Source of the DNA: a virus
IMG/VR virus record: IMGVR_UViG_3300043295_000234
Length of the DNA: 24,107 nucleotides
Direction: 5' to 3' (one strand)
In this document: piece by piece, positions 3-20,079 of the stretch
Layout of the letters: the number at the start of each line of letters is the position of its first letter
Position numbering within the stretch: position 1 is the first letter of the stretch
The notes under the pieces: generated by a model
What the model was told of the DNA's origin: nothing
Databases searched by the model: none
The model's input: the letters and a program-made list of their open reading frames with translations, nothing else
Program-made: the position numbers and the translations under genes

Positions 3-131
3 CTGCGGCTGGGGGCGCGCGTGGCCCGCGAGATGACGCCCCAGGAGCGGTACGCGGCCGAGGAGAGGATCCGCGAGCTCGACGCGGTCCTGTCGGGCGG
101 GCCCGAACGTCGAGCGGGACGCCTGTACTAA
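3..131 (+). CDS. 3' end of a hypothetical protein (5'-truncated by the window)
   Basis: Frame 3 reads LRLGARVAREMTPQERYAAEERIRELDAVLSGGPERRAGRLY with TAA at 129-131, overlapping the convergent HNH stop. Confidence 0.55.
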   Translation: MRLGARVAREMTPQERYAAEERIRELDAVLSGGPERRAGRLY

Positions 132-637
132 CCGAGGTGGGGGCACACGCCCCCGTTTCTGACCTTCCCGAGCTGGCAGACGGCGCAGAGAGCTTGTAGA
201 GGCGGTTCGTTGGGCCACCCTCTGGCCCGTAGTAGGGCTGCGAAGGACCGACCGCCCTTGCTCCCGCGCCCTCCCCCGCGGTCTTTGGCCCCGTCGTTGT
301 TGACGTGGTCGAGGGTCAGCGCCCATTCTGGGGCTACGATGTGTAGAGGGCATTTGGGGCAGCAGCACACCGGCGGGTCGTGACCCGAGTAGTGGACGAG
401 TGCCTCGTGATACGCTCTGCTCTGCGTCTCTCGTACCTGCCGGGCCGCACAGGACTTGCACCGGCGGAAGAAGGGGTGCCCGTGGACGCGAAGGACATTC
501 GCTTCCGTCAACTGGACGCCACACCGCAGGCAGGTCTTTAGGGGCCGAGGGGGACGAACAGTAGTTGGTAGGCCGCCGCTCGCCGTGTTCCCCTCGGCTG
601 TCCCCGTTCCGTCGTTGAGCGTACGCTGTGCGAGCAT
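128..637 (-). CDS. HNH-family endonuclease-like protein with Zn-binding motifs (copy 1)
   Basis: CLRC..CKSC, CCCPKC, LTLDHVNNDG, LQALCAVCQLGK..GGVCPH; typical of small phage HNH proteins; visibly less GC-rich than the flanks. Confidence 0.75.
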   Translation of the reverse strand: MLAQRTLNDGTGTAEGNTASGGLPTTVRPPRPLKTCLRCGVQLTEANVLRVHGHPFFRRCKSCAARQVRETQSRAYHEALVHYSGHDPPVCCCPKCPLHIVAPEWALTLDHVNNDGAKDRGGGRGSKGGRSFAALLRARGWPNEPPLQALCAVCQLGKVRNGGVCPHLG

Positions 638-685
638 GGCGACCTACCGCCGGGTTGATAGGTCCGGCTACCCTTAACAGTATGG

Positions 686-1051
686 ATGAGCGCCCGCTTC
701 GACCCGAGGGACATGGACGAGGACGGCCGGTACATCTCGAACGCCGTCCTGCTGGAGAAGATCAACGGGTTCCGAACGTTCTACGAGACGCGCCACAGCG
801 AGCTCATGGAGCGGGTCGCCCACCTGGAGGGGGTCGTCAAGGAGGTCGGCGAGAAGGCCGCCGAGCGGGCCGCCGTCCTCGAGAACCGGGAGATCGTCGA
901 CCGGGAGCGCATCAAGACGCTCTTCGAGGCGAACGCCGCCCACAAGCAGGCCCACGCGGACGGCCGGGCGACGACGATCGCGGTGGTCACCGTCATCGTG
1001 GGCGCCGCCGGAGTCCTCTCATACTTCATCGGACTGTTCCTGGGCCGGTGA
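686..1051 (+). CDS. Coiled-coil protein with a C-terminal transmembrane anchor
   Basis: 121 aa; charged helical body then TTIAVVTVIVGAAGVLSYFIGLFLG; TTGATA at 655-660 is at TATA-like distance from the ATG. Confidence 0.8.
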   Translation: MSARFDPRDMDEDGRYISNAVLLEKINGFRTFYETRHSELMERVAHLEGVVKEVGEKAAERAAVLENREIVDRERIKTLFEANAAHKQAHADGRATTIAVVTVIVGAAGVLSYFIGLFLGR

Positions 1052-1698
1052 CCGACTCGGTCAGCGTGGTCCTCATCAGCCGCACCCTCGAGGAGGCGCG
1101 CCGGGCCAGCGAGCGGCTGCCGCCCGGGGCCGACGAGGTCCTGCTCGCCACGAACCCCCGCGGGATCCCGTCCGTGCATCCGGCGGTCATGCGGAACCGG
1201 GGCGCCGAGCACGCCACGGGCTCCATCCTGGCGTTCTTCGACGACGACTGCTCGATCGAGGGCGACCTCCGCTGGTTCAAGGGCCGGAGCGAGGCCTGGT
1301 GGACGGCGCAGTCGTTCCGCGACGCCACCGGGGACGGGGCGTCGGCGCGCGCCTGCGCGTTCTCCACGGCCGCGGCGCGCCACGGGATCTGGTTCGGCGC
1401 GATCGGCGCCTTCATGGTGTTCCGCCGCAGCGCGTTCTGGGCCGTCGGGGGCTTCCCCGTCGTCGCGCCGGGAGAGGACACGGGCATCGCGCGCCGGCTC
1501 TACCGCCTCGGGCTCCGGATGCACCCCTCGCCGTTCCGGGTGACCTTCCACCGCCCCGTGACGACCCTCGGGCCCGCGATCCGGCGGGCGCCCGACTGGC
1601 TGAGGTTCCCGCAGCCGGAGACGGTGCCGATCCTCCGCCAGGTCCCGCGTCAGCCCAGCGGGACGCAGCAGCCGTCGCCCGTCGTGTCGGCGAAGTAG
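1048..1698 (+). CDS. Glycosyltransferase family 2 (GT-A fold)
   Basis: GTG start overlaps the upstream TGA (GTGA); VSVVLIS, RNRGAEHATGSILAFFDDD, FMVFRRSAFWAVGGF, GED motifs; 216 aa. Confidence 0.85.
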   Translation: MTDSVSVVLISRTLEEARRASERLPPGADEVLLATNPRGIPSVHPAVMRNRGAEHATGSILAFFDDDCSIEGDLRWFKGRSEAWWTAQSFRDATGDGASARACAFSTAAARHGIWFGAIGAFMVFRRSAFWAVGGFPVVAPGEDTGIARRLYRLGLRMHPSPFRVTFHRPVTTLGPAIRRAPDWLRFPQPETVPILRQVPRQPSGTQQPSPVVSAK

Positions 1699-2144
1699 CC
1701 CGGCGGGCAGTCCGCGGCCTCGCCCGGCGGGACGGGGTAGTTGAGCGCGGGGACCTGGTTCCCCGGGCACGCCGGGCAGCTCGGGCACGGGCATTGCTCC
1801 TCGCAGTTGCACCCGCCGGTGCAGCCGATGTCCGCGCACGTCGCGCACGACAGCGGCGCCTGGCACGTCTGGTTCTCGGGGCAGTTCGGGCCGCAGTCGG
1901 AGCAGGGGCAGTCCTGCCCGCAGTCGCATCCGGACGGGGTGCACCACCCGTCGGCGTCCGGCCCGACGGTTCCCGGGGGGCATCCCCCCGTCGTCGGCAC
2001 GCACAGCCCCTCCGGGGGGCGCGGAGGGCACCCGGGACGCGGGCACGGGCTCAGGGAGCACCGGAGGACCCACCCGATGAGGAAGCCGCCCGCGACGGCG
2101 GCAAGGCCGATCGCCGCGGCCTGGCCCCGGGTCGCCACGGTCAT
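1650..2144 (-). CDS. Membrane-anchored Cys/Pro/Gly-rich protein (25 Cys)
   Basis: ATG at 2144 overlaps the upstream stop (ATGA); N-terminal hydrophobic AAAIGLAAVAGGFLIGWVL followed by dense CxC/CxxC repeats; 164 aa. Confidence 0.75.
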   Translation of the reverse strand: MTVATRGQAAAIGLAAVAGGFLIGWVLRCSLSPCPRPGCPPRPPEGLCVPTTGGCPPGTVGPDADGWCTPSGCDCGQDCPCSDCGPNCPENQTCQAPLSCATCADIGCTGGCNCEEQCPCPSCPACPGNQVPALNYPVPPGEAADCPPGYFADTTGDGCCVPLG

Positions 2145-2362
2145 TCCTCGGAAGGACACGTCAGGCAGAGGCCCTGCGACGTCGACGTCCCCGGCGCCCC
2201 GCCCGGCCCGCCCGGCGCCCCCGACGACGCGGGCTGGGAGCCGCTGCTGGACCCGGCGGCGCGGCGGCGGCGGAGCAGCGCGGCGATCGCGAGCGCGGCC
2301 CAGACGCTCACCACGACGCCGCTCCCGACGGCGACGCCGAGGTCCTCGTCGGCCACGCTCAC
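2141..2362 (-). CDS. Small membrane protein (73 aa)
   Basis: GTGA overlap at the start and ATGA overlap at the end; TM segment LGVAVGSGVVVSVWAALAIAALL followed by RRRR. Confidence 0.7.
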   Translation of the reverse strand: MSVADEDLGVAVGSGVVVSVWAALAIAALLRRRRAAGSSSGSQPASSGAPGGPGGAPGTSTSQGLCLTCPSEE

Positions 2363-2913
2363 CACTTCCCTTCGGGGCACCCGCCCGTTCCGGACAGGAG
2401 GACCCGCGTCGCGATGGGGCAGCCGCAGTGGCGGCACCGCGGAAGGATCCCGCCCGTGTTCATCTCGCAGGCGTCGCAGACGGCCCGCCGGTACGACCGG
2501 AGCCCGCTCGAGAGGGCCGCGACCGGCGCCGTCGGGGGAGGCCGGTTGTAGGCGTGGAGCTCCTCCTGCGCCGCCGCGGCGATCTCGCGGACCTGGTGGC
2601 CGGGCTTCCCCGGCGCCACGATGACGTAGCCGAGCTCGGCGAGGGTGTGCTCCCCGACGGTCGTCTCCGTGCCGTTCGGGGCGATCCAGATGGGGACCTC
2701 CTTGCTGAGGCCGTCGATCTCGACGGCGCCCATCGCCTCGGGCCAGCTGACCTGCCCGTTGTCCGTCATGGGATGCGCCGTCCGGTACGGGACGAGCCCG
2801 ATCGCCCGGGCGTCGCTCTGCCCCAGGATGGCCTGCGAGGCGCCCGTGTCGACGAGCGCGCTCCGCTCGATCGACCCGCCCGGGCCGTGGAACGTCGCCA
2901 GGAGGTGCGCCAT
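2359..2913 (-). CDS. Retropepsin-like (clan AA) aspartic protease with a C-terminal Cys-rich Zn finger
   Basis: ALVDTGASQAIL catalytic motif; TVGEHTL at the position of the (I/L)LG motif; C-terminal CDAC..CRHCGC..C; TGATG junction; 184 aa. Confidence 0.8.
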   Translation of the reverse strand: MAHLLATFHGPGGSIERSALVDTGASQAILGQSDARAIGLVPYRTAHPMTDNGQVSWPEAMGAVEIDGLSKEVPIWIAPNGTETTVGEHTLAELGYVIVAPGKPGHQVREIAAAAQEELHAYNRPPPTAPVAALSSGLRSYRRAVCDACEMNTGGILPRCRHCGCPIATRVLLSGTGGCPEGKW

Positions 2914-3485
2914 CAGGTCGCCGCCTTCTTCGGGTTGTAGAAGAGGAACTGGACGTCGACGCCCGCGTCCGTCGCCGCCGGGTCCGCCATGACGTAGAGG
3001 TAGCTGAGGTCCCACACGTCGAGCGCGATCGCCTGGCCCTCGGGCAGGTGCGAGTACGCGTTCGCCGGCGGCGTCGCCTGCGGCGCGTCGGAGAACCAGT
3101 ACAGGAGCTCCGTCAGGGCGGAGAGGTTCCGCAGCGTCACCGTCCGGACGTTCGGCGGCACCGGGCTCACGAGGGTCGCGACGGCCTGCCCGTTCTGGAC
3201 GACGACGAGGTTCGCCCCGCCCGACCCAAACCCGTTCTTCGGCGTCCCGACCTGGGAGTAGGTCAGCGTCCGGAGGTCGTTGGCGGGCTCGAGCAGCCGC
3301 CGGATCTGGCGGAGCAGCTGGCAGACGTCCTCGGGCGACCCCGGGACGATCCCCGCCGAGCCCGACGGCGCCTCGGTCAGGCTCAGGCCGGCCGCGGGGA
3401 GCTGGGCCGACTGGCCCTGTCGGCGGCCGGGCGGGCGCACGGGGACGCTGGTCGGAACGCTGGTCGGCTCCTCGGTCGCCTCCAC
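2913..3485 (-). CDS. Hypothetical protein, putative virion component (beta-rich C-terminal domain)
   Basis: 190 aa; low-complexity N-terminus then alternating-hydrophobic strands (VRTVTLRNL, LLYWF, YLYV, VDVQFLF); located in the structural block. Confidence 0.65.
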   Translation of the reverse strand: MEATEEPTSVPTSVPVRPPGRRQGQSAQLPAAGLSLTEAPSGSAGIVPGSPEDVCQLLRQIRRLLEPANDLRTLTYSQVGTPKNGFGSGGANLVVVQNGQAVATLVSPVPPNVRTVTLRNLSALTELLYWFSDAPQATPPANAYSHLPEGQAIALDVWDLSYLYVMADPAATDAGVDVQFLFYNPKKAAT

Positions 3486-3495
3486 GGCGACCCCT

Positions 3496-3921
3496 CTACT
3501 GGCCCGCGCCCGGCGTCATGCGCGCGAGCGCGTGGGCGTTGAGGCTCGTCGCCGCGTTCGACACCACCTGGAGCTTGTAGCCCGGCGTGATGAGGATCTT
3601 GAACTGGTCCTCGTCGAACTTCTCGCTCGCGCTCGCCGCCAGGTTCCAGGTGAACAGCGGGATCGTGGTCGACGTGTCCGGGTCGTACAGCTGCACCGTC
3701 GCCAGGATCGCGGAGTTGGTGGCGTTGGTCAGGATGAGCCAGTCCACCTTCAGGTTGAAGTTGTCCGGGCAGATCGGGCCGTCGCCGGTGGCCCCGTCGA
3801 CCGTCAGGTCCGCCGGCGTCTCGCCGACCGCCGTGTGGGTCGACAGCGGGACGTAGTCGGCGTCGTGGACGTCGTCGAAGTAGCCCGACCCGAGGTAGGC
3901 CGAGGACGTGGACGCGCCCAT
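3496..3921 (-). CDS. Putative virion protein, single beta-sandwich (penton/spike-like)
   Basis: 141 aa; TGATG start; strand pattern LKVDWLILTN..ATVQLYD..ILITPGYKLQVVSN resembles small jelly-roll domains (fold inferred). Confidence 0.65.
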   Translation of the reverse strand: MGASTSSAYLGSGYFDDVHDADYVPLSTHTAVGETPADLTVDGATGDGPICPDNFNLKVDWLILTNATNSAILATVQLYDPDTSTTIPLFTWNLAASASEKFDEDQFKILITPGYKLQVVSNAATSLNAHALARMTPGAGQ

Positions 3922-4754
3922 CAGCTGCCTCCCGTGGAGGCCGTGAGATACCCGGCCGAGATGAGGGCCTGCTCGACGGAGGTCGACGCGGCGCTGTTCT
4001 TCGGCTTGCCGCGGCTCGAGCTGTACGGGGGAAGGTCGCCCGCCTCGGCGCCGAGCGGCTGGATCTTGCCGTAGTTGTTCGAGGGCCACGGCAGGTTGAC
4101 GTTCGGCGCGCCGAGCGACACGTAGCGCGCGGGCATCGTGCGCTTGAGGAGCCGCTGGACGATCGCGGGGTCGGTGACGGGGTCGACGTACAGGCGGTTC
4201 ACGAGGAAGTAGAACCGCGGGTTCACGGGCCACGGGCCCGGGTTCGCCAGCACGAACGAGATCAGGATGCTGTTCAGGCTGAAGAACTCCGAGTAGCGGC
4301 TCGGCGACTTGTACGGCGAGTCGAAGCCGTCGAGGAAGCCGACGTCGGGGTACGTCTGCGACGGGACGATGTTCTGGTCCAGCGCCGCGACGAACGAGCC
4401 GCCCGGCTGCTGGAGCCACACGCGCATCTGCCGCGGCGCGACGCCCCAGAAGACCTGGTAGAGCTCGAGCTCGTCGAGCAGCGTGAAGATGTTGGTGACG
4501 CCCGCGATCGACGTCACGGTGTTCAGCAGCGGCAGCTGGAGGTTCTGGATGTAGCCCGGCGCCTGGCCCGCGCCCGGCACCTCGCCGACCTGCACCATCG
4601 GGCCCGCGAGGGCCCCCTGGAGGACCGGGTCGTAGACGAGCGGGTTCAAGCTCTGGCGCCGGACGACGAGCGGGACGTACTCGTCGGTGCCCGTGTTCAG
4701 AACGACGTAGTCGGATTCCTGGAGGAGCTGGCTCAGGTCGTCGATGCTCGGCAT
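3921..4754 (-). CDS. Putative capsid protein (jelly-roll-like, 277 aa)
   Basis: Strong purine-rich RBS (AAAGGGAGAG); beta-rich composition (YQVFWGV, MRVWLQ, ISFVLAN, FYFLVN). The ORF is clear; the capsid function is inferred. Confidence 0.6.
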   Translation of the reverse strand: MPSIDDLSQLLQESDYVVLNTGTDEYVPLVVRRQSLNPLVYDPVLQGALAGPMVQVGEVPGAGQAPGYIQNLQLPLLNTVTSIAGVTNIFTLLDELELYQVFWGVAPRQMRVWLQQPGGSFVAALDQNIVPSQTYPDVGFLDGFDSPYKSPSRYSEFFSLNSILISFVLANPGPWPVNPRFYFLVNRLYVDPVTDPAIVQRLLKRTMPARYVSLGAPNVNLPWPSNNYGKIQPLGAEAGDLPPYSSSRGKPKNSAASTSVEQALISAGYLTASTGGS

Positions 4755-4828
4755 CTTGTTTCTCTCCCTTTCGTGTGTGTGTGCTCGGGGCGGAGGAAGG
4801 GGTTGCTATGAGGGGGGTAGGCCGCGAC

Positions 4829-5158
4829 CTACGTCCCCTCGTAGATGACCGAGGCGGTCAGGCCCTCGGCGTAGGTGACGGACCCGAGCTCCTGGAGGTA
4901 GCCGCCCGTGGTCGCGCCCGTCGTGTAGAGCTTGAGCAGGAACGTCTGTCCCGACTCGGAGCCGAGCACGGCGGCGGCGAGGACGGTGGTCCCCTGGCCC
5001 GTCGAGGCCGGGGACTTCACCATCACCGATCGGACCTTGTTCAGCTGGGCCGCCTTCGTGACGGTCAGCGTGTAGCCGCCCGCCGGGTAGACCGTGCTGG
5101 GGACCGTGATGTCCTCGGCGAACAGCCGGGCATCGGTCCCCGTCGACTGGTTCCCCAT
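4829..5158 (-). CDS. Small beta-rich virion protein (cement/decoration-like)
   Basis: 109 aa; GGAGGAGG RBS; YPAGGYTL..LLKLYT..ELGS pattern; lies between two capsid-like genes. Confidence 0.65.
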   Translation of the reverse strand: MGNQSTGTDARLFAEDITVPSTVYPAGGYTLTVTKAAQLNKVRSVMVKSPASTGQGTTVLAAAVLGSESGQTFLLKLYTTGATTGGYLQELGSVTYAEGLTASVIYEGT

Positions 5159-5192
5159 CTTCTTCGACCCCCCTCCTCCGCGGGAACGGGGC

Positions 5193-6050
5193 CTACGTGG
5201 CCTCGTTCGTCGCGTAGTCGGTCGTCTGGATCTGGCCGCCGAGGACGGTCGGGATCGAGGCGCCCGCCGTCTCGTAGTTGATGTCGATGTAGAGCGCCTT
5301 GTTGAGCTGGACCAGGAACGCCTGGTCGAACTCGTAGACGCCCAGGTCGGACGGGGTGTGGAGCCACGGGTTCTCGTGGACGCCGAGCTTGCGCTGGGTC
5401 TGGTCGAGCAGCTGCCACTCCGTGATCCGCGGCGAGGAGGCGAAGTCGCCGATGCCGAGGACCTCCATCACGACGCGGTTCTGCGGGGACCGGAGGATCG
5501 AGCCCGACGTGGTCGTGTTCAGGTTGATGTTGAACGCGCCCGTCTGGACCGTGGTGACGGAGGCGCCCACCGCCCACCCGGCCGTCGCGACGGTGTACGG
5601 CCAGGCGATGATGTCGGCTGCGGAGATCGTCGGGTAGCACGTCGCCGCCCGGATCAGCGACGGGACGAGGGTCCCGTTCGAGATGGGGCCGATGTTCCCC
5701 GTGATCTCGTACTTCGCGTCGACGGCGAGGATCGCGAGCTGCGGGAGCTTCGTCGCGAAGTACACCATGTCGCGGAAGCTGTAGCGCGCGTAGAGCTGGG
5801 TGTAGTACCAGCTCATGAAGTTGGACCACTCGGTGACGGTGAGCGCGGTCGAGGAGAGGTCGGGCGTCGGGTAGATGTTGGTCAGGTAGTCGTCCGCCGG
5901 CTGCCCGCCGGGCAGGAGCGGCGACTGCGCGGGCGTCGGGCCCGCGAGGCCGAGGAAGGCGTCGACGTTCAGCGGCGAGTCCCCAGGGAGGACCTGGAGC
6001 TTCGCGTAGATGGTGTCCGTCCCGGGGTTCATTCGCGGTAGATCGGCCAT
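5193..6050 (-). CDS. Putative major capsid protein (285 aa)
   Basis: ATG at 6050 with GAGGG RBS and an upstream TATAAG (6087-6092); Thr/Ala/aromatic beta-rich sequence ending in strand-like VMEVLGI..ITEWQL..FLVQLNKALYIDINY..VLGGQI. Function inferred. Confidence 0.6.
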   Translation of the reverse strand: MADLPRMNPGTDTIYAKLQVLPGDSPLNVDAFLGLAGPTPAQSPLLPGGQPADDYLTNIYPTPDLSSTALTVTEWSNFMSWYYTQLYARYSFRDMVYFATKLPQLAILAVDAKYEITGNIGPISNGTLVPSLIRAATCYPTISAADIIAWPYTVATAGWAVGASVTTVQTGAFNINLNTTTSGSILRSPQNRVVMEVLGIGDFASSPRITEWQLLDQTQRKLGVHENPWLHTPSDLGVYEFDQAFLVQLNKALYIDINYETAGASIPTVLGGQIQTTDYATNEAT

Positions 6051-6086
6051 GTGTGTCCCTCGAGTGCTGTAGGGTCGGGCAGGGTT

Positions 6087-6107
6087 CTTATACGGAGGAG
6101 TCACTCC
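6087..6107. promoter_or_regulatory. Bidirectional TATA box (CTTATA/TATAAG) plus GGAGT-C-ACTCC palindrome
   Basis: TTATA at 6088-6092 lies 23-27 nt before ATG 6115 (+); TATAAG on the minus strand lies about 40 nt before the capsid ATG at 6050. Confidence 0.6.
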
Positions 6108-6114
6108 ATGACTG

Positions 6115-6342
6115 ATGGTACCGGCCGAATCAGACGGGGACGGTCAGGCCCCCCATGCGACCCCTGGACGGACCGAGCTCGTGAAGTTTCAGGTGACCTC
6201 TGAGACGAAGCTGGCATGGGTTCGAGTTACGGGTGAGGCCCGCGTGAAGAAGCGATGGAACCAGGACGATCTACTCCACCACCTACTCGAGCTCTACGCG
6301 GCCGAGGAGATGGGGAACCGTAGCGTGTTCCATCGCCGCTGA
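6115..6342 (+). CDS. Ribbon-helix-helix-like transcription regulator
   Basis: 75 aa; LVKFQVTSETKLAWVRV..NQDDLLHHLLELY strand-helix-helix pattern; divergent from the capsid gene. Confidence 0.55.
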   Translation: MVPAESDGDGQAPHATPGRTELVKFQVTSETKLAWVRVTGEARVKKRWNQDDLLHHLLELYAAEEMGNRSVFHRR

Positions 6343-6384
6343 AAAAGAGGGGTCCCCTGCCTCGCGGGGGTCACGAGGCAGGGG
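6342..6384 (-). terminator. Hairpin plus U-tract terminator
   Basis: Perfect 11-bp stem (6354-6364 with 6374-6384, 9-nt loop) followed on the minus strand by CTCTTTTT, downstream of the 6405 stop. Confidence 0.7.
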
Positions 6385-6404
6385 TCGGAAAGGTTGGACT
6401 GGTC

Positions 6405-6884
6405 CTACGCGGTGAGCGCGCCGAGGACGGCGATGTTCCTCAGCGTGGCCGCCGGGGCCGCGCTCGCGGGGATCCCGCGGGGCGTCACCGTCGTGTTCGT
6501 GTAGGCGCCGCGGTAGGCCGCGCGAGCGCGGGACGCCGTCCCGCCGATCATCGCGACGACCTTCGGCACGATCCAGCCGAACAGGAACGTGGTGAGCCCC
6601 CAGCCGAGGAGGGCTCCCGACAGCGCCCTGTGGCCGCCGAGGATCCGGGTCTTGCCGAACGTCCCGATGAGCCCGAGGGTCGTGCCCACGATGCCCGTCG
6701 CGAAGTTGACCGTCTCGCCGTTGGTTCCCAGCTGCGGGACCCACGCGGGGCCCGAGCCGGAGTTGTCCCAGGCGGTCGTCGCGGCGACCTGGAGGCCGCC
6801 CGCGCCCGCGCCGATCACGCTCGTCGCGAGGACCGCACGGGTTTCGGTGTCCATCCGGAGGCCGAACCCGGGTGCGTATGCCAT
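6405..6884 (-). CDS. Multi-pass Gly/Ala-rich membrane protein (putative internal-membrane virion protein)
   Basis: 159 aa; about 3 hydrophobic segments; GGGAGGT RBS. Confidence 0.75.
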   Translation of the reverse strand: MAYAPGFGLRMDTETRAVLATSVIGAGAGGLQVAATTAWDNSGSGPAWVPQLGTNGETVNFATGIVGTTLGLIGTFGKTRILGGHRALSGALLGWGLTTFLFGWIVPKVVAMIGGTASRARAAYRGAYTNTTVTPRGIPASAAPAATLRNIAVLGALTA

Positions 6885-6921
6885 GATGTGTTACCTCCCT
6901 CTCGTGGTTTGGTCGGGAGGC

Positions 6922-7290
6922 CTACGCCCGGATCGCTCGTCCGCCGCGGAGCGCCTGGGCGCGCGCGCGCCACGCCGAGACGGCCTGCGGGACCGCCTGG
7001 TGGCGCATCTGGGCCGAGCGGGCCTTGTCGGCCCAGTACTCGGGGTTGACGGATCGGCCGGTGAGCTCGCGGCGGACGTAGCCCGCGGCGCCGGGCAGTC
7101 CGTCGATGTTGATCAGGCCCTTGTCGGCGGCGTCGTGGGCGGCCTCGGCGAGGTTGGCGCACGCCTCGGTGACGCCGGGCTTGACGAGGAACAGGTTGCG
7201 GTACGGCGCAACCGTGACGCCCTTCTTGCTGAAGGGCCCAGCCGACTTCAGGACCATTCCCGCCGCGATGCCGTTCGTGAGTCTGCTCAT
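6922..7290 (-). CDS. Basic hypothetical protein (122 aa), possible virion/DNA-binding protein
   Basis: ATG 7290 with GGAGAG RBS; Arg/Ala-rich C-terminus; first gene of the minus-strand structural block. Confidence 0.7.
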   Translation of the reverse strand: MSRLTNGIAAGMVLKSAGPFSKKGVTVAPYRNLFLVKPGVTEACANLAEAAHDAADKGLINIDGLPGAAGYVRRELTGRSVNPEYWADKARSAQMRHQAVPQAVSAWRARAQALRGGRAIRA

Positions 7291-7335
7291 TTTCGTCTCT
7301 CCGTTCGGGGTCTCCCCCGATGATAGAAGGATGGC

Positions 7336-7371
7336 GTCACTCTTAAGTCTCGTGTCACCATTTGGTGACTC
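7336..7371. promoter_or_regulatory. TATA box (CTTAAG) with GTCAC repeats and a GTCACCA-TT-TGGTGAC palindrome
   Basis: TTAAG at 7343-7347 is 25-29 nt upstream of GTG 7372; perfect 7-bp inverted repeat at 7354-7369. Confidence 0.6.
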
Positions 7372-7533
7372 GTGGCCCCGGTCGAGGAGCATATCGTTCG
7401 CCGTCAGGTGTGGGTGCGCGTGAACCAGGGCGTCCTCGACCGGATCGCCGCGTCGTGCGCGCGCAAGGGCCTCGTCCAAGAGGTCGCCGTCGGTCGGATC
7501 CTCCAGGACGCGGTAGCGCGGGGCAAGCCGTGA
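7372..7533 (+). CDS. Ribbon-helix-helix (CopG/Arc-like) regulator, 53 aa (absent from the ORF track)
   Basis: Manual translation MAPVEEHIVRRQVWVRVNQGVLDRIAASCARKGLVQEVAVGRILQDAVARGKP; classic strand-helix-Gly-helix pattern; TGA overlaps the next GTG. Confidence 0.75.
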   Translation: MAPVEEHIVRRQVWVRVNQGVLDRIAASCARKGLVQEVAVGRILQDAVARGKP

Positions 7534-8087
7534 GCGCCGCCGCCGTCCCGCCCCCGCTGTCGACGAGCTGCCCCAGCTGCCGACTCTCCGTCTACTTCCT
7601 CGACGAGCCCGAGCTCTCGGCCCACCGCTCCGTCTTCCCGAACGCGGGCGTCGTCCGACGGGTCGGCGTCGACATGGCGGGCTGGCGGCCCCAGCGGGAG
7701 CTCGTCGTCGCGGGGAAGAGGATCCTGCTGCGCCGCGCCGACCTCCTCGCCTTCACCGTGTTCCCCATGCGCTGCGACCGCCCCGCGTGCGGCAAGGTCT
7801 TCGTCGCCTACAACGACGTCACCAACATGGCCAACGTCGTCCACTACGAGACGCACGTCCGGCCCTACCACCCCGAGCGCCCGCCCGTGCTGGCGAACTA
7901 CGGGCTGGTCGCGCACACGCCCGGCGAGTTCGCGAAGGACGTCGCGGGCATCAAGAACCCGCTCATCCGGGACGCCGTGCTCCGTCGGCTGACCGGGGCC
8001 GGGTGGGAGTCGCTCGTCACGCTCGTGCGCGAGGAGATGCCCCCGGCGCCTCCCCCGTTCGTCCCGCGCTCGGCCGCGGAAGAGTAG
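7530..8087 (+). CDS. Zn-finger hypothetical protein (185 aa)
   Basis: GTGA-coupled to the RHH gene; CPSC and CDRPAC..H..H..H motifs. Confidence 0.7.
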   Translation: MSAAAVPPPLSTSCPSCRLSVYFLDEPELSAHRSVFPNAGVVRRVGVDMAGWRPQRELVVAGKRILLRRADLLAFTVFPMRCDRPACGKVFVAYNDVTNMANVVHYETHVRPYHPERPPVLANYGLVAHTPGEFAKDVAGIKNPLIRDAVLRRLTGAGWESLVTLVREEMPPAPPPFVPRSAAEE

Positions 8088-8088
8088 C

Positions 8089-8577
8089 TCAGAACGGCGG
8101 CATCGGGATCGAGGACAGCGGCCCGGCCTCCTCGACCGTCGGGTGGATGTGGCCCGGAGCGCGCGCCGATCGCCGCGGGACCTTGACCTTCTTCTGCTTC
8201 ACCTTGAGGGGGGCGAGGCCCTCGGCCCTCCGGCGGACGTCGTCGGGGAGCATCATCCGGTAGAGCTCCTGCTGCCGGGCCCGCTCGTCCCGGACCTTCT
8301 TGCTCCGGTGCGGGTCGGGGTTCGCCGCGGCGACCAGCTTCTCCTCCTCGCGGATCGGGGCCCAGGTCGGGTTCTGGCCGTGCTCGGCCTTCTCGCCGAA
8401 CGCGCGGGCGGCGCCGGCCGCGAAGGCGGCGCGGGCCTCGAGCTCGGGCGCGGTCATCTGGTCCAGCTCGTGCACCGACGGCTTGACCCGCTGCCAGACG
8501 ACGCCGTTCTCCTTCTGCACGGGCATCAGCCGGATCTTCTGGTGCGTCTCGGGGTCCTCGAGCTCGTAGACCGTCAT
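8089..8577 (-). CDS. Hypothetical protein (162 aa)
   Basis: Normal globular, charged composition; ends 1 nt from the convergent stop at 8087. Confidence 0.75.
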   Translation of the reverse strand: MTVYELEDPETHQKIRLMPVQKENGVVWQRVKPSVHELDQMTAPELEARAAFAAGAARAFGEKAEHGQNPTWAPIREEEKLVAAANPDPHRSKKVRDERARQQELYRMMLPDDVRRRAEGLAPLKVKQKKVKVPRRSARAPGHIHPTVEEAGPLSSIPMPPF

Positions 8578-8606
8578 CGTAAGTAGGAAGAGTATGTGTT
8601 GACGCT

Positions 8607-9059
8607 ATGCCGAAGGTCCCCTACTCTGCCCCGTACGCGGAATGGCCCGAGCGGCGTAAGAAGCTTGCGCGGGCGAGGTCACGCCGATGGGCCAACAAGA
8701 ATAGGGAGCGCGTCCGTGGGTGGGACCGAAAGAACGCGCGGCGAACCTGGCGCGCGACCACGGCGGAGGCGCTGCGAACCTACGGTACGGACCCCCCGAC
8801 GTGCGGCTGCCCCAGGTGTCCCCTCCATAAGGAGGCGGACACGCGGTTCCTGACGCTCTCTCACCCCGATGGGGGTGGAGGCGCCCACCGACGCGCGTTG
8901 ACCGGCAATTCAAAAGGAGGCGGATGGGTCGGCGCGCTCAAGAGGAGGGGCTGGCCCACGGACCCTCGCATCATCGTGGAGTGCTGGAACTGTAACGAGG
9001 GGCGCAAGGTCAATGGGGGTGTGTGCCCCCACCTTACGCCTGACAGCGCCCCTCGGTGA
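8607..9059 (+). CDS. HNH-family endonuclease-like protein (copy 2)
   Basis: Basic N-terminal helix; CGCPRCPLH, LTLSHPDGGG, RGWP, VECWNCNEGRKVNGGVCPHL; clearly alignable to 128..637. Confidence 0.75.
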   Translation: MPKVPYSAPYAEWPERRKKLARARSRRWANKNRERVRGWDRKNARRTWRATTAEALRTYGTDPPTCGCPRCPLHKEADTRFLTLSHPDGGGGAHRRALTGNSKGGGWVGALKRRGWPTDPRIIVECWNCNEGRKVNGGVCPHLTPDSAPR

Positions 9060-11166
9060 TGGCCTTGTCGAGGTCGTTGAGCGCGTCGCGCAGCGACCCG
9101 TTGACCGCCTTCGCCACCGCGGCGAAGTAGTCGCCGGGGCATGTCAGGCTTTCCGCCGTCGCGACGGCCTGGAGGTACTCGACGACCTGGGCCTCGAACA
9201 GCGGGTAGACCCGGAACTTGATGGCCCGGGAGCCGAGCGGCGTGTCGACGAGGAAGTCCGGCCGGTTCGACGTCGCGAAGACGATGTTGTTGCGCGCGAC
9301 CGTCGTCTGGTCGACGTCGGCGCGGCCGGCCTGGAGGACGTCCTTGAGGAACGAGATCGTCGTCGGCGGGATGCGGTCGACGTCCTCGAGGACAAGTACG
9401 TGCTTGACCGACACCCCCTGCGTCGACTCGCCGAACCCGCCCGGCGTACGGATGAAGTTGCGGAGCAGCTCGCGCGTCGCCGAGTCCGCGAGCGCGTCGC
9501 CCGGGACCTCGAGGTACCAGCCGGACTCCGGCCCGCCCCGGGGGTTCACGACGGCGAGCGTCGACCCGGCGGCCTCGAGCTCGGCCTGCTTCTTCCGGAA
9601 GTAGTCGCGGGCGAACGCCCGGACCACCGACGTCTTCCCGAGCCCCCCCTGCTCGCTCCACAGGACCATGAACAGCGGCGGCCGGTCCCTCTCGATCGCT
9701 GCCCGGAGGAACGCCACCGGGTTCTCGTTCTCCGGGGTGCGGCTCGACACCACGACGTCGGCGAGCGTCCTCGGCTCGAACCGCACCGCGAGCGGCACGT
9801 AGACCGCCCCCATCGGGGCGACGGTGCCGAGCGTCCGCTGCGGGGTGTAGGCCCCGGCGACCGGCGCCGTCGGCGCGGGCGCCCACTCGGCCAGGTGCTC
9901 CAGGAGCGGCGCCTGGAACGCCTCCCGGTTGAGGGCCGCCCACGGGACGTTCGTCCGGCGGCGAACGTAGTTCGCGTCGAGCGAGATCCCGAGCCGCAGG
10001 ATGAGGTCGACGCGGGCGTCATCGGAGAGGCCGTTCCAGATGCGCGAGGCCCGCGTGATGGACTCCGCCGTGATGGGCTCCGGGGGCGGCAGCGGGACCG
10101 GCTCCGACTCGATCCCCCGGACGACCTCGCGGTGCGTCCCCTCGGGGCCCGTGTGGATGCGCTCCTCCACGTACTCCCGGGTCAGCGGCGCCGGCGGCGG
10201 GGGCGGAGGAGGCGGAGGGGGAGGTGGCACGGGCCGCAGTGGCGCGGGCGGCGGTGGCTCGTTCTCGATGTGGAGCCCCGTCGGGCCGCCAAAATCGCCG
10301 GGCGGCGGGAAGTGGAAGACCTGCTCCCACCGGGACCGGGCCGCGTCGACGACGTCGGACGGGGGCCGGATCCCCCGGTCCTTCAGCAGCTTCGACCACA
10401 GCCGGTAGTTGGCCTCGAGCTCGCGGCGGCCGAACGTCCGGATGGCGTTGGGCGACGGGAACTGCGGGTTCGTGGGCTCCGGCGCCGCGGGCGGCTTGGC
10501 GAGCTCCTCGCGCTCCTCGGCCGGCGTCGGGGGCGGGGGAGGCACCTCGGGCGCGGGCGGCTCGGGCGTCCCCTGGAGCTCGGGCGGCAGCGGGGGCGCC
10601 GGGTTCTCGCCGATGTTGATCTCCCCGGGCCGGAACTCGATGCGGGGCCGGGGGCCCTCCTCGCGGCGCCCGCGCATCTCCTCCCGGATGATGTCGCGGA
10701 GCTCGTCGGGGTTGAACCCGGTGACGGGGCCGGTGACCTTGCTGCGGAGGTCCGGCGGGATGATGTCCTGGAGCTCGGGCGCGAACGACTCCACGATGGC
10801 GGCGGCGAGCTTGCCCGCGTCGCTGATCTCGATGCCCCGGAGCGCGCCGAACTGCGTCCCGAGGTACTCCTCGAGCGTCTCGCCCTTCTTGGCCCGATAC
10901 TGCATCCGGGCCGTCGCCACCCGGGCCTTCTGGAGCGTGGCGTAGTTCTGGAGGATCTGGGCCGACGTCGCCCGGAGGAACTTCCACAGCCGGTCCGCCG
11001 ACGGGAACTCCATGCGGTGCGTGCGGGTGAGCACGAAGACCTCGCGCAGGAACGCGATGATGGCCCGGCCGTCGACCTCCTTGAGGGCGCCCGAGTCCAC
11101 GACCTCGATCGCGCGGAGGGCGCGGTCGCGCGGCGACAGCCGGTCCGGGTTCGACTCAATCGCCAT
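9034..11166 (-). CDS. Fusion protein: unknown N-terminal region, Pro-rich linker, C-terminal RFC small-subunit-like clamp-loader AAA+ domain
   Basis: RFEPRTLADVV (RFC box II), GGLGKTS (Walker A), VLVLEDVD (Walker B variant), FATSN (sensor 1), LGSRA (SRC-like Arg finger), GSLRDALNDL (sensor 2). Confidence 0.85.
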   Translation of the reverse strand: MAIESNPDRLSPRDRALRAIEVVDSGALKEVDGRAIIAFLREVFVLTRTHRMEFPSADRLWKFLRATSAQILQNYATLQKARVATARMQYRAKKGETLEEYLGTQFGALRGIEISDAGKLAAAIVESFAPELQDIIPPDLRSKVTGPVTGFNPDELRDIIREEMRGRREEGPRPRIEFRPGEINIGENPAPPLPPELQGTPEPPAPEVPPPPPTPAEEREELAKPPAAPEPTNPQFPSPNAIRTFGRRELEANYRLWSKLLKDRGIRPPSDVVDAARSRWEQVFHFPPPGDFGGPTGLHIENEPPPPAPLRPVPPPPPPPPPPPPAPLTREYVEERIHTGPEGTHREVVRGIESEPVPLPPPEPITAESITRASRIWNGLSDDARVDLILRLGISLDANYVRRRTNVPWAALNREAFQAPLLEHLAEWAPAPTAPVAGAYTPQRTLGTVAPMGAVYVPLAVRFEPRTLADVVVSSRTPENENPVAFLRAAIERDRPPLFMVLWSEQGGLGKTSVVRAFARDYFRKKQAELEAAGSTLAVVNPRGGPESGWYLEVPGDALADSATRELLRNFIRTPGGFGESTQGVSVKHVLVLEDVDRIPPTTISFLKDVLQAGRADVDQTTVARNNIVFATSNRPDFLVDTPLGSRAIKFRVYPLFEAQVVEYLQAVATAESLTCPGDYFAAVAKAVNGSLRDALNDLDKAITEGRCQA

Positions 11167-12436
11167 CGGACTCCTCCTCGACCCCCTCGCGGTCCGCCTC
11201 GGTGATCGACTCGGACCGGAAGATGCGCTCGACGACGGCCGGCAGGTTCTCCTCCTTGGTGCCGGTCGCCACGACGACGTAGACGGTCGCCCGCTCCTTC
11301 CCGGGCAGCGTGCGGACCACCCGGCCGACCTCCTGGACCAGCTTGGTCACCCCGGCGCCCCCGCCCATGAGGACCGCGATGCCGACCTCCGGGACGTTAA
11401 CGCCGCGGCGCAGCACGGCGACGGAGGCGAGGACCTGGAACGTCCGGCCCCAGCTATCGAAGATGTCGACCCGGTCCCGGCGCGTCGTCTCCGCGCTGAT
11501 GATGCGGCTCGGCACCCCGCTCATCGTCAGGTAGGCGCAGGCGTCGGCCAGCGGGTCGACCCGAGTGCCGAACACGAGGATGCGCTGGTCCGGGTGCGAG
11601 CGCGCGATCGACAGGAGCTCCTCGGCCCGCGCCGGCACGTTCGCCAGCAGCGTCTCGCGGAGCGAGCTGTACTTGAAGAAGGCGAGGGCGGCCTGCCGGA
11701 TGCTCGCGTCCGGGCTCGAGATGAGCCGCTTGACCCGCAGCGGGTTCCCGGTCCCGAGGACCCGGCGCAGGTTGCGGAGCGTCGCGTCGACGCGGTCGTA
11801 CTCGCGCCGCGCCTCGGGCGTGAGCTTCACGTACCGGGCGACCGTGTGGACCGGGACGAAGACCCCGGCCTGGATCTGCTCGCGCGGGCTGCGCGACAGG
11901 AGGACGGGGAACGACGCGAGCAGCTCGCTCCTCCGCTCCTTCTCCGACGGCAGCGTCGCGGTGAAGACGACGGCGTAGCTGTGCTGGCGGGCCTCGGCGA
12001 GGACCCGCTTCCAGACGTCGCCCGTGGCGAGGTCGCCCTCGTCGAAGATGACGACCGGGAACCCCCGGATCTTCTCGGGGTTCGCGAAGAGCGACTGGTA
12101 CGTCGACACGGTGACGAACCCCGGCCGCTTCTCCTCGCCGTAGTACACGCCACCCCGGATGCCGGCGCTGGCGAGCGCGGGGATCCACACCTGGTCGATG
12201 AGCGCCTTCGTCGGGACCAGGATGAGCGTCGGCTGCCGCAGCCGGATGATGAGCGCGATGGCCGCGAGCGTCTTCCCCGACGCCGTCGGGAGCTCGATCG
12301 TCCCGTAGTGCTTCGCGAGCGCGGCCTCGACCGCCTCGTCCTGGTAGTCGCGGAGCGCGAACGGAAGCCGCCACGCGGCGAAGTCGTCGGTCGGCGGAGG
12401 GATGATGCCGAAACGGTCGAACGGGGACGCCGCCAC
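11156..12436 (-). CDS. Superfamily 2 helicase, XPB/Rad25-like
   Basis: LRDYQ (Q motif), LPTASGKT, IFDEGD, TAT, RRGVNVPE, QEVGRVVR; 426 aa. Confidence 0.9.
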   Translation of the reverse strand: MAASPFDRFGIIPPPTDDFAAWRLPFALRDYQDEAVEAALAKHYGTIELPTASGKTLAAIALIIRLRQPTLILVPTKALIDQVWIPALASAGIRGGVYYGEEKRPGFVTVSTYQSLFANPEKIRGFPVVIFDEGDLATGDVWKRVLAEARQHSYAVVFTATLPSEKERRSELLASFPVLLSRSPREQIQAGVFVPVHTVARYVKLTPEARREYDRVDATLRNLRRVLGTGNPLRVKRLISSPDASIRQAALAFFKYSSLRETLLANVPARAEELLSIARSHPDQRILVFGTRVDPLADACAYLTMSGVPSRIISAETTRRDRVDIFDSWGRTFQVLASVAVLRRGVNVPEVGIAVLMGGGAGVTKLVQEVGRVVRTLPGKERATVYVVVATGTKEENLPAVVERIFRSESITEADREGVEEESDGD

Positions 12437-12439
12437 GGC

Positions 12440-12643
12440 TCACGCCTCCGACATCACGAGCCCCATCTGGGGAACGAGCTCGTCCCGCCCGAGGATCGGG
12501 ATCTCCCGGTCCTCCTGGGCCGCCTTCGCCCGCTGCTGGCTGCCGGACGAGACGAGCTCGTAGAGGCCCAGGCACGCGAGGAGGATACCCGCGATCGACA
12601 CGACGACGCCCAGGCCCAGCTTCATCGTCTCCGCCCCGCTCAT
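12440..12643 (-). CDS. Small membrane protein (67 aa)
   Basis: TM segment LGLGVVVSIAGILLACLGLY; ATGA overlap. Confidence 0.7.
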   Translation of the reverse strand: MSGAETMKLGLGVVVSIAGILLACLGLYELVSSGSQQRAKAAQEDREIPILGRDELVPQMGLVMSEA

Positions 12644-12987
12644 CGGCGGCGCCTCCGGCTCGCGCGCAGCGCCTCGACCAGGGCCGCCTCGACCAGCTGC
12701 TTCGTCGGCTGGCGCATCGGGCCCCGGACCGGGATCATCGCGTTCAGCGCGTCGCCCATCCGGTCCTGAACCAGGTGCGCCGACGCGGCGACGACCCGCT
12801 CGGGCGTCAGCTTCCCGCGCTTCGCGAGCTCGAGCGCGGCGCCGGACAGCGAGTGGATGGAGTCCTCCCGGTGCCGGCCCCCGTGCGCCGACGCCGTGGA
12901 ATCCATGAGCTGCTGAACCTCCCGGCCGGCGACGGGGTCGATCCCCATCATCCGATTCAGCTCGGCGTGGAGCGCCCGGGACGGCAC
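12640..12987 (-). CDS. Hypothetical protein with a His/Asp metal-binding pattern (YdjM-like hydrolase candidate)
   Basis: H..MD..HR...H..HL..D spacing; 115 aa; CCTTAACC about 25-28 nt upstream of the GTG. Confidence 0.6.
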   Translation of the reverse strand: MPSRALHAELNRMMGIDPVAGREVQQLMDSTASAHGGRHREDSIHSLSGAALELAKRGKLTPERVVAASAHLVQDRMGDALNAMIPVRGPMRQPTKQLVEAALVEALRASRRRRR

Positions 12988-13012
12988 GATGGATGTAGGG
13001 TCGCCCGTTCGG

Positions 13013-13576
13013 TTAAGGGTTCGGTTCCGGGCTCGCGAGCCCGGCCGAGGGCGCGGGCCGCATGCACAGGCCGTGGTGGAGCGGGCAGATGCCCCTCGGG
13101 GGCCGGTAGATGGGGGCGTCGTCGATCTCGCCCTTGTCGCGGAGCATGACGAGCATGTGGAACGTCAGCCAGCAGAAGTACTCCCACCCCTGCGGCGTGT
13201 CGAGCAGCGCGGCCTTCTGGGGGTCGGCCGACCGGATGAGCTCGCGGCACATCCGGGGCTGCATCAGGTAGGTGTGGATCGAGGTCCACTGGTTCCGGAT
13301 GACGGCCCGCGCGATGCGCTTGGAGAATCGGTTGTCGAGGTAGCGCCGCCGGACCTCGGACGACAGGTCGTAGCCCGTCGTGATCGCGTACTCGAACTCC
13401 GCCATGCTGAACGACTGCGCGAGGACCCCGAACATCGACTGGATGAGCTCGTCGTTCCCGGGCTTCGTGAACCGGAGCGCGCGCTTGAACCAGCTCTCCT
13501 TCCAGAACTTCGCGGCCTCGGGCGAGGCGTGCGGCGGCACCCGGGTCTTGAGGTTGTCCGCGTCGGTGTCGGCCAC
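13013..13576 (-). CDS. Hypothetical protein (about 187 aa)
   Basis: Aromatic-rich helical globular sequence; start placed at GTG 13576 after the 13587 stop (the track gives 13612). Confidence 0.75.
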   Translation of the reverse strand: MADTDADNLKTRVPPHASPEAAKFWKESWFKRALRFTKPGNDELIQSMFGVLAQSFSMAEFEYAITTGYDLSSEVRRRYLDNRFSKRIARAVIRNQWTSIHTYLMQPRMCRELIRSADPQKAALLDTPQGWEYFCWLTFHMLVMLRDKGEIDDAPIYRPPRGICPLHHGLCMRPAPSAGLASPEPNP

Positions 13577-13586
13577 GGTCGAGGTC

Positions 13587-15116
13587 CTACGGCCGAACCT
13601 CGCCGTTGCCACCCTCGGTCACGGTCCCGTCCTTGTCGATCGTCGCGTCGGGCGGGATCTCCTGCGCTGGCGGAGCCTCCGCCGGGGCCTCCTCCGCGGG
13701 GGCCTCCGGCTCGGGCTCCCCCTCGGGCGGCGCCTCCGGAGCGGCCTCGGGCGGGGCCGGCGGAGGCGCGGCCGGCTCGGTGTGCTTCGTGCCCGGCTTC
13801 GGCGGAGGCGCCAGGGTCGTCCGGCCCGCGACGCGGGAGAAGACCGAGGGACGGGGCGCGGGAGCCTCCGGCGCCGGAGGCGCGGCGGCGGGCGGCGCGG
13901 GGGCCGCCGGAGCGGGCGCCGCGGGGGCGGGCGGCGGGGTGCGCTGCGAGGGGAGGACGCCGACGGCCCGGCGCTCCTGGTAGATCCGGCTCCCGAACCG
14001 GGCGACGAACTGCTCCTTGGTGAGGCTCACGACCTCCTTCGTCGCCTCGTTGCGCCCGGAGTACGGCATGTCGGGCCAGGTAGCGAGGTCGCTCGGGTCG
14101 GCCTCCCATCCCGCGAGCTCGGGATACGGGTCGCGCGTTCCCGACGGCGGCTGCGGCGGGGCGCCCGCCTCGTCCTCGTACTGCGGCTGGTAGACGGCGG
14201 AGCTCCCGGGCGGCCCCGACGGGGTGCGGCCCGGTGGCGGGAGCCCGCGGCGGCCGGCCTCGAGGGCGCCCATGCCCTCGAGCCCCTTGCCGATCTGGTC
14301 GCCGACCAGGTTGATGCTCTCCTTGACCTCGTCGACCCACCACGGCTTCTGGTTCTGGGGCGGGCCCCCGGTGCCGCGGATCGTCTCCCACTTCTTCCCG
14401 ACGGCCTCGAACTGCGTCAGGCCCTCCATCACCGAGTCGAGCTGGCTCCTCGGCGCGCTCGATGTCTGGAGGATCGGCTCGACCCGGGCGCGGAGCGACT
14501 GGAGCGCGGCGGCGTTCTCCTTCATCACGGCGTCGTACTGGGCGTCGCGCTGGGCCATCGCCGCGTCGAACCGGGAGATGAGGGCGCCGTCGCGGGCGTC
14601 CTGCTTCGCCTGGCGGACGGCCTCGGCCTCGGCGAGCTTGCGCTCCTCCTTCTCCTTGAGGAGCTCGGCGACCTGCTGCTGGAGCGCGAGCGTCGCGGGG
14701 TCGGGCGCCGCCGTCCGCGCCGACGGGCCCTCGCCGTCGCCGTCGAGCGTGCGCCCCATCGCGAGGATCTGGTTCGCCCGGACCTTCTGCTTCGCCAGCT
14801 TCACGAGGTCGAACTCGTCCTCGTCGGCCCTCGGACGGTTGCCGCCGTTGCCGAGGAGATCCGGCATCGCGGCGACGAGCGCGAGGTTCGCCTTGCGCTT
14901 GACCGCCTGCTGGATGATGTCGTCGACGGACTGGTCCGGGTCCGCCGCCGGGAGATGCTCGCGGGGCTCCCGCCACGGCTTCGTCGGCGCGGGCCCGCCG
15001 CCACCCAGGAGACGGGTGCGGACGACCTCGTTGACCGAGATGTTCTCCCGGCTGGCGATCTCGTTGACCAGCTTCATCGTCTCGGCGTCAAGGACTGTGG
15101 GCATCGGACTGCTCAT
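13587..15116 (-). CDS. Large protein with an RHH-like N-terminus, coiled coil and Pro/Ala/Glu-rich tail (509 aa)
   Basis: TVLDAETMKLVNEIASRENISVNEVVRTRL; heptad-rich centre; APPAP low-complexity C-terminus; ATGA overlap. Confidence 0.75.
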   Translation of the reverse strand: MSSPMPTVLDAETMKLVNEIASRENISVNEVVRTRLLGGGGPAPTKPWREPREHLPAADPDQSVDDIIQQAVKRKANLALVAAMPDLLGNGGNRPRADEDEFDLVKLAKQKVRANQILAMGRTLDGDGEGPSARTAAPDPATLALQQQVAELLKEKEERKLAEAEAVRQAKQDARDGALISRFDAAMAQRDAQYDAVMKENAAALQSLRARVEPILQTSSAPRSQLDSVMEGLTQFEAVGKKWETIRGTGGPPQNQKPWWVDEVKESINLVGDQIGKGLEGMGALEAGRRGLPPPGRTPSGPPGSSAVYQPQYEDEAGAPPQPPSGTRDPYPELAGWEADPSDLATWPDMPYSGRNEATKEVVSLTKEQFVARFGSRIYQERRAVGVLPSQRTPPPAPAAPAPAAPAPPAAAPPAPEAPAPRPSVFSRVAGRTTLAPPPKPGTKHTEPAAPPPAPPEAAPEAPPEGEPEPEAPAEEAPAEAPPAQEIPPDATIDKDGTVTEGGNGEVRP

Positions 15117-16045: not shown

Positions 16046-16053
16046 TGCCGGCC

Positions 16054-16094
16054 GCAAGTGCTGGTCCGCTACTTAGCAAGTGCGCCCGCAAGTG
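16054..16094. repeat. Three direct repeats of GCAAGTG
   Basis: Copies at 16054-16060, 16076-16082 and 16088-16094, directly upstream of the HTH gene. Confidence 0.7.
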
Positions 16095-16266
16095 TCCGAA
16101 CACCAGCTGGTGCTGCTGCGGGCGTACTCCGTCACGTCAGACCGCCGTGGGGGGGAGGATGCCGTCGTGGGGGAACCCTCGACGGACGCTCGGCGCTCGC
16201 CACGTCCCCCCGGCGGGGCGCGACCGGCGCCGAGCGCCGGCGGCCCCCACAGGGGGGCCCGCCCGG

Positions 16267-16629: not shown

Positions 16630-16648
16630 CGGCAGGGGGGCGACCGAG

Positions 16649-18437: not shown

Positions 18438-18455
18438 GGCCCGGGGGCCGAGGGC

Positions 18456-19706: not shown

Positions 19707-19725
19707 CGACCGAGGGACGGCCGGG

Positions 19726-19977: not shown

Positions 19978-20079
19978 CGTCCTGGCTGTCGAGAAGTTAC
20001 GGGCGGGAAGGGGTTGGGTTTGAGGGGGGCCGCTCTCCGAGCTATGGGACTTGCCCCTCGCGGCGGCCCCCGGTCATCG

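Follow-up and report, generated by a model that had tools for sequence, protein, structure and literature searches.

The stretch of viral DNA analyzed here in its entirety (IMG/VR record IMGVR_UViG_3300043295_000234; 24,107 bp, hereafter the window) contains, between positions 7290 and 1090, a block of largely minus-strand genes built around two capsid-sized proteins, P1 and P2, which we read as the likely virion-formation module of a new group of tailless archaeal viruses. At ~71% GC, the window holds many spurious open reading frames (ORFs), and coding frames are marked by a third-position GC content of 0.94 to 0.97, in one frame per region; almost all real genes of the window lie on the minus strand. 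An identical JGI contig (L007) adds 2,187 bp past the window's left end, so the element is longer than 26.3 kb and incomplete. The original prediction, a first reading of the letters alone, had placed a minus-strand block here with five named ORFs, and all five are present on that strand (5193-6050, 4829-5158, 3921-4754, 3496-3921, and 2913-3485); the several membrane proteins that it had counted are likewise borne out (6405-6884, 2141-2437, 1650-2159, and 662-1051). The genes and signals of the block and its flank, in the order in which the minus strand is read, are as follows (TM, transmembrane).

6922-7290, minus strand: p122, a basic protein of 122 aa and the left border gene of the block; no Pfam or PHROG match
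6405-6884, minus strand: tm159, a Gly/Ala/Thr-rich membrane protein of 159 aa with 2-3 predicted TM segments
6354-6384, minus strand: 13-bp GC-rich hairpin followed by a CUCUUUUU run (a U-run in RNA), terminator-like
6115-6342, plus strand: small divergent gene, 75 aa; a gene of ~65-71 aa has the same place and orientation in L004, L005, and L044
6087-6092, minus strand: TATA-like box of P1, TATAAG, 37-42 nt before the ATG, read from the sequence
6057-6061, minus strand: Shine-Dalgarno-like GAGGG of P1, 7-11 nt before the ATG
5193-6050, minus strand: P1, 285 aa when read from the ATG and 303 aa with a GTG farther upstream (6104) as start, candidate major capsid protein
4829-5158, minus strand: p109, a Thr/Gly/Ser-rich protein of 109 aa between P1 and P2, candidate minor capsid or spike protein
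3921-4754, minus strand: P2, 277 aa, candidate second capsid protein, possibly a jelly-roll
3496-3921, minus strand: p141, a small, acidic, conserved protein of 141 aa directly after P2; no PDB, Pfam, or PHROG match
2913-3485, minus strand: p190, 190 aa, with a variable N terminus and a conserved C-terminal part of ~130 aa
2359-2913, minus strand: retropepsin-type aspartic protease with a DTGA motif and a Cys-rich C-terminal tail (Pfam Asp_protease_2 and gag-asp_proteas, E ~1e-4)
2141-2437, minus strand: small protein with one TM segment and an uncertain start; not conserved in relatives
1650-2159, minus strand: Cys-rich protein (25 Cys) with an N-terminal TM anchor, in the variable region; found only here and in the identical L007
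~1090-1698, plus strand: GT2-family glycosyltransferase, start approximate (Pfam Glyco_trans_2_3, 27.1 bits against a cut-off of 27)
662-1051, plus strand: membrane protein with a predicted C-terminal TM segment

Searches with tblastn recovered the five named ORFs in the same order, at 25-58% identity, in the loci L004, L005/L010, L009, L011, L020/L021, L022/L023, and L044, and gene order is kept in at least eight related loci from metagenomes or metagenome-assembled genomes (MAGs). Since these same-order matches fall in independent contigs, these ORFs are real genes. The shared order runs helicase, clamp-loader-like AAA+ protein, p122, tm159, the small divergent gene, P1, a ~100-aa protein, P2, a ~135-aa protein, a ~157-aa protein, and the aspartic protease; downstream of the protease lies a variable region with glycosyltransferases and PKD-domain proteins. 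The core, tm159-P1-(p109)-P2-p141, persists at 25-58% identity across elements of 40-72% GC and is joined to differing replication modules (e.g., in L022/L023, a PDDEXK nuclease and other genes replace the helicase/AAA+ pair). The block thus behaves like a structural module that an archaeal mobile element has conserved, as far as the original prediction went in that direction. P2 adjoins P1 in every full module, with p109 between them in most copies. The p109 homologue is missing from the copy in the same-genus genome G056 (L044; DAHXNZ010000028.1, 10001-11603), where P1 and P2 are directly adjacent; the core can thus do without p109. Few P1 relatives came from a search of 5.8 billion proteins, and a profile search of 1.84 billion representatives yielded 43 clusters of proteins of 230-305 aa. 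Apart from the protease, the core proteins have no match in Pfam or PHROGs; scans of an IMG/VR subset (queries A1, P0016, and P0009) and a GTDB pattern scan with A1 returned nothing.

The AlphaFold2 model of P1, built from a 39-sequence alignment (predicted local distance difference test [pLDDT], 86.5; predicted TM-score [pTM], 0.86), comprises helices at residues 9-20, 29-36, 72-86, and 99-116, followed by a C-terminal eight-stranded single jelly-roll (SJR) at approximately residues 128-276. The earlier description of P1 as beta-rich therefore applies to the beta sandwich of residues ~128-276 but not to the first ~115 residues, which are mostly helical. An HK97 fold, which the original prediction had named as incompatible with its reading and which the long helices led us to suspect, was ruled out by fold searches: P1 is a jelly-roll protein. 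The best solved-structure neighbor of both P1 and P2 (the latter from a low-confidence model) is a 178-residue capsid chain of SPV1 (Portogloboviridae; PDB accession number 6oj0). Judging by their number and length, we take the 178-residue chains A and T of this entry to be SPV1 VP4. Many cellular jelly-rolls of the carbohydrate-binding-module (CBM) and DOC types score within 1 Z of P1's viral match. Foldseek searches of P1 against the PDB returned generic jelly-rolls only (the furin P domain, CBMs, and picornavirus VPs; TM-score, ~0.2), and those against BFVD returned nothing clear.

For P2, the model is of low confidence (pLDDT of 56) and its matches are jelly-roll-like only; by this model, P2 is probably a jelly-roll as well. 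The prediction of two capsid-sized jelly-roll proteins is accordingly firm for P1 and weaker for P2. Sequence profiles of P1 and P2 match none in the PDB even at E values of up to 10, those of p141 and p190 found nothing there either, and the sole PDB profile match of p109, the PRD1 P5 spike knob (1yq5; E value of 0.087), is not significant. All-against-all hhalign comparison of P1, P2, p109, p141, and p190 detected no paralogy. ESM Atlas features match phage structural clusters at 0.81-0.91, which we treat as leads only. The protein p141 is a candidate minor capsid or vertex protein, and p190 is presumed to have a structural or assembly role.

Pfam and PHROGs searches of every large ORF in the window and the L007 extension (26.3 kb) found no terminase, portal, HK97 major capsid protein (MCP), tail gene, or FtsK/HerA ATPase, and the same search of ~21 kb each of L004, L020/L021, and L022/L023 was negative, as were the Pfam hits of L004, L005, and L020-L023; all genomes behind the ATPase negative are incomplete. 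The absence of head-tail hallmarks noted at first reading thus stands for the large window ORFs, and the packaging ATPase that had been proposed as a target in the flanks was found neither there nor in the relatives. Of the three Caudoviricetes markers (HK97 MCP, large terminase, and portal), none was found, P1 being a jelly-roll protein, and no small hydrophobic capsid protein of the spindle type was identified. The only NTPases seen are a superfamily 2 (SF2) helicase and the clamp-loader-like AAA+ protein (9034-11166); the latter was considered as a packaging ATPase and rejected, as it matches clamp-loader families.

The remaining genes and signals of the block add to this picture. The most conserved protein of the block is p122, which is 68% identical to its counterpart in L020, where P1 is 37% identical; p122 is a candidate DNA-binding protein or nucleoprotein. 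Upstream of P1 in all relatives examined lies tm159. The hairpin at 6354-6384 (dG, -29 kcal/mol; z, -4.3; equally stable shuffles, 0 of 200) divides the p122-tm159 unit from the P1 operon and sits between convergent genes. TATA- and Shine-Dalgarno-like elements stand at the same distance from P1 in 8 of 10 related loci, signals that, as read from the DNA, fit archaeal expression. The strand-then-two-helices pattern of the small divergent product (6115-6342; '..EDFVK.LL') suggests a ribbon-helix-helix regulator. Membership of the protease in the retropepsin type is based on its DTG motif and a family hidden Markov model match: in the window, Asp_protease_2 scores 23 bits, just under the 24.3 cut-off, and the L020/L021 orthologues match at E values of up to 1e-5. 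The protease is kept in L004, L005, and L011 and is a candidate maturation protease. The GT2 gene, missed in the first reading, converges on the Cys-rich gene at 1650-2159, and glycosyltransferases also occur in L004, L005, L022, and L044. Within the variable region of L020, a 367-aa protein (19459-20562, minus strand) matches PHROG virion structural protein (6e-15) and tail spike protein (9e-8) and represents the only statistically solid "virion" annotation across the whole family.

The host is archaeal and belongs to a Thermoplasmata order of soil and peat, as observed from linkage to archaeal genomes. In the nearest genome, G001, one contig is identical to the window over positions 16917-24107; this genome is archaeal by the presence of ribosomal protein S19e and the absence of bacterial L20. 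By six-frame profile searches, P1 occurs in 4 of the 186 genomes of G001's order (G056, G291, G406, and G321), with P2 adjoining it in three of these four, and in none of the other orders in a 401-genome sample of the class. G056 is the Thermoplasmata archaeon isolate clean313, and NCBI has a protein related to P1 that is encoded by a Thermoplasmata MAG; the unpublished genomes G099, G213, and G303 underlie no claim made here. The window encodes proteins that are not acidic, so its host is no halophile. The very high-GC archaeon of the original prediction was right as to domain, but, with related elements spanning 40-72% GC, the high GC content describes this copy only. Matching of CRISPR spacers, also proposed at the outset, supplied no spacer evidence, and the host is linked through the genomes instead: short near-exact DNA matches were examined in 81 genomes of the host family, and none of the five that were fetched lies in a repeat array. 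Most of these matches are of low complexity, and the poly-Pro tract of the AAA+ protein (10185-10227, a CCG-rich repeat) alone produces dozens of spurious short matches that are mistakable for spacers.

Some of the genomic copies are damaged or divergent. The P1 copy of G321 (L013/L047; G321:C73) has two in-frame stops and lies in DNA of 39.5% GC, and the P2 copy of G406 (L046; G406:C34) contains a single TGA; decay of proviruses or errors of assembly may explain these stops. On a 513-kb Thermoplasmata contig, an integrated low-GC island (L016; G291:C10:445001-465000, ~2000-16100; GC of 0.59-0.67 versus 0.70) contains a D5-type primase-helicase (548 aa), a 534-aa protein of no assigned kind, a lone divergent P1-like protein (247 aa), a trypsin-like peptidase, and a tyrosine integrase (512 aa). 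P2 is not present on this island, which may be a decayed provirus or another element that borrowed a P1-type protein.

On the replication side of the window, Pfam and PHROGs searches identify ParB, the SF2 helicase, and the clamp-loader-like AAA+ protein, with a methyltransferase gene farther along.

9034-11166: AAA+ protein, 710 aa, clamp-loader-like (Pfam/PHROGs)
16270-16809, minus strand: phage-type Dam N6-adenine methyltransferase (PF05869, 2.7e-12), 83% identical to a gene in G377:C24

The presence of ParB suggests persistence as an episome. Three contigs from same-genus genomes, G377:C24 (L040), G365:C12 (L041), and G315:C33 (L026), encode proteins related to the helicase, p115, p199, p509, Dam methylase, and p353 of the window at up to 83% protein identity, and P1 and P2 are not present in any of them, indicating that the replication/accessory and structural modules move independently. 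Bracketing the structural block in opposite orientations are two paralogues (128-637, minus strand, and 8607-9059, plus strand; 40% identity over 110 aa), with a homologue at L020 6851-7216; the HNH label given to both at first reading is not upheld, as neither has a Pfam match at E values of up to 0.1. Between the replication and structural modules, an opposite-strand gene (7362-8087, plus strand) has counterparts in L004, L009, and L020 (29-39% identity over ~160 aa) and no Pfam match. Past the window's left end, L007 encodes two further beta-rich ORFs (8386-8994 and 9341-10321), the first 36% identical to L004 19485-20246 and the second with tandem '..GAESLAETPAL..'-like repeats, which look like fiber or spike proteins and have no family match. 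Whole-window megablast against phage and plasmid records returned none, tRNA and Rfam searches were negative, and no repeat arrays were found.

Taken as a whole, the architecture (an SJR capsid protein and no ATPase) looks more like that of the Portogloboviridae than that of the Halopanivirales. Beyond the SPV1 capsid chain being the best structural neighbor of P1 and P2, both are tailless and archaeal, a packaging ATPase is recognized in neither, and both genomes encode membrane proteins, a glycosyltransferase, and a methyltransferase. The two differ in that portogloboviruses have circular genomes of ~20 kb, infect Sulfolobales, and carry mini-CRISPR arrays, whereas the element exceeds 26.3 kb, is linked to Thermoplasmata, and has no detected repeat arrays. 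Portogloboviruses have SJR capsid proteins of the VP4/VP10 type and condense their genome with the nucleoprotein VP1; no VP1 homologue was found here, p122 being only a candidate. From the PRD1-type viruses (Tectiviridae and other double jelly-roll MCP Bamfordvirae), the element departs by the one jelly-roll of P1, rather than two, and by the lack of a detected A32-like ATPase and protein-primed polymerase.

Our preferred reading, with a probability of roughly 0.6, is that the block serves virion formation in a new group of tailless double-stranded DNA viruses, or hybrids of virus and plasmid, whose hosts are Thermoplasmata of soil and peat; the particle would probably contain a membrane. The assignment favored by the original prediction, a divergent member of the Halopanivirales (Helvetiavirae; Sphaerolipoviridae, Simuloviridae, and Matsushitaviridae) with two vertical SJR MCPs over a membrane and ATPase-driven packaging, is not supported. 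It would account for the tandem pair of capsid-sized genes, one or both of which encode an SJR, the membrane proteins, and the lack of a tail, and the Halopanivirales MCP VP17 has its closest structural relative in SPV1 VP4 (6oj0), according to PMC8812541. Nevertheless, no FtsK/HerA ATPase was found near the MCP candidates or elsewhere in five lineages, MCPs of the VP16/VP17 or VP4/VP7 type are neither among the PDB profile matches at E values of up to 10 nor among the best 50 structural neighbors, the genes are arranged differently (P1-p109-P2), an aspartic protease is among them, and the host lineage is neither halophilic nor thermophilic; we regard this placement as very improbable.

A nonviral origin, in which the element is a plasmid or integrative element and P1 and P2 are jelly-roll carbohydrate-binding, cell-envelope, or other accessory proteins that form no virion, would be in keeping with the plasmid-like backbone (ParB, SF2 helicase, and clamp-loader-like AAA+ protein), with the cellular jelly-rolls that rank so close to P1's viral match, with the lack of any recognized virus hallmark protein or IMG/VR relative, and with the replication-module relatives in G377, G365, and G315 that lack P1 and P2. 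We judge it unlikely, given that P1 and P2 have neither a TM segment nor a hydrophobic N terminus and so do not look exported, that the block is the conserved part while replication modules vary, that it is accompanied by a protease, membrane proteins, PKD proteins, and tailspike-like proteins, and that one viral capsid chain is the top match of two unrelated block proteins. A virus of another shape (pleomorphic, spindle-shaped, or head-tailed, the head genes then lying beyond the window) would make P1 and P2 spike proteins, receptor binders, or baseplate-like proteins instead of building blocks of the shell; phage proteins that bind receptors or form baseplates often contain jelly-roll domains, several of them are in the match lists, and the language-model neighbors of a P2 homologue are phage tail-associated clusters (0.90-0.91; a lead only). 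Such a morphology appears improbable: 21-26 kb of five lineages contain no terminase, portal, HK97 MCP, or tape-measure-sized gene, no spindle-type capsid protein was identified, and P1 and P2 vary least among the genes, whereas the greatest variability is usually found in receptor-binding proteins.

If the block does encode a virion, the P1 operon would start at its own TATA-box promoter, facing the small regulator of the ribbon-helix-helix type. P1, with its helical N-terminal part and SJR, and P2 would be the capsomers of an icosahedral shell, under which a lipid layer would hold tm159 and other TM proteins; p109, p141, and p190 would have minor, vertex, or spike roles. Trimming of precursors would fall to the retropepsin-like protease, and glycosylation of the shell to the GT2 enzyme. 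The genome of SPV1 is enclosed without a packaging motor (PMC8459092). Since no packaging ATPase is seen here, we propose similarly that the genome would be enclosed by coassembly with a DNA-binding protein, for which p122 is a candidate, rather than pumped in.

The family is new to Pfam, PHROGs, the IMG/VR subset, and the papers searched, none of which describes such a group in soil or peat Thermoplasmata, and it is best filed as an SJR-capsid tailless archaeal virus. As it escapes Pfam, PHROGs, and the IMG/VR subset, standard virus detection pipelines probably miss it. Even if it proves not to be viral, it would constitute a conserved, lineage-specific jelly-roll module on archaeal mobile elements, and a retropepsin-like protease in a prokaryotic capsid module would be of independent interest. 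We advance only tentatively, as rather unlikely, the specific proposal of a family of mesophilic soil and peat Thermoplasmata viruses that are icosahedral and membrane-containing, with two SJR proteins, no ATPase, and a retropepsin-type maturation protease, a combination for which the papers searched gave us no precedent among prokaryotic viruses. According to one scenario, a portoglobovirus-like ancestor with one SJR MCP and no ATPase gave rise, through an intermediate, to the Helvetiavirae, with two SJR MCPs and an ATPase (PMC8812541). Were the proposal true, two SJR capsid proteins in complete genomes without an ATPase would be a living example of that intermediate and would put the scenario for the origin of the Helvetiavirae to the test, and SPV1-like architecture would extend from hyperthermophilic Sulfolobales to mesophilic Thermoplasmatota.

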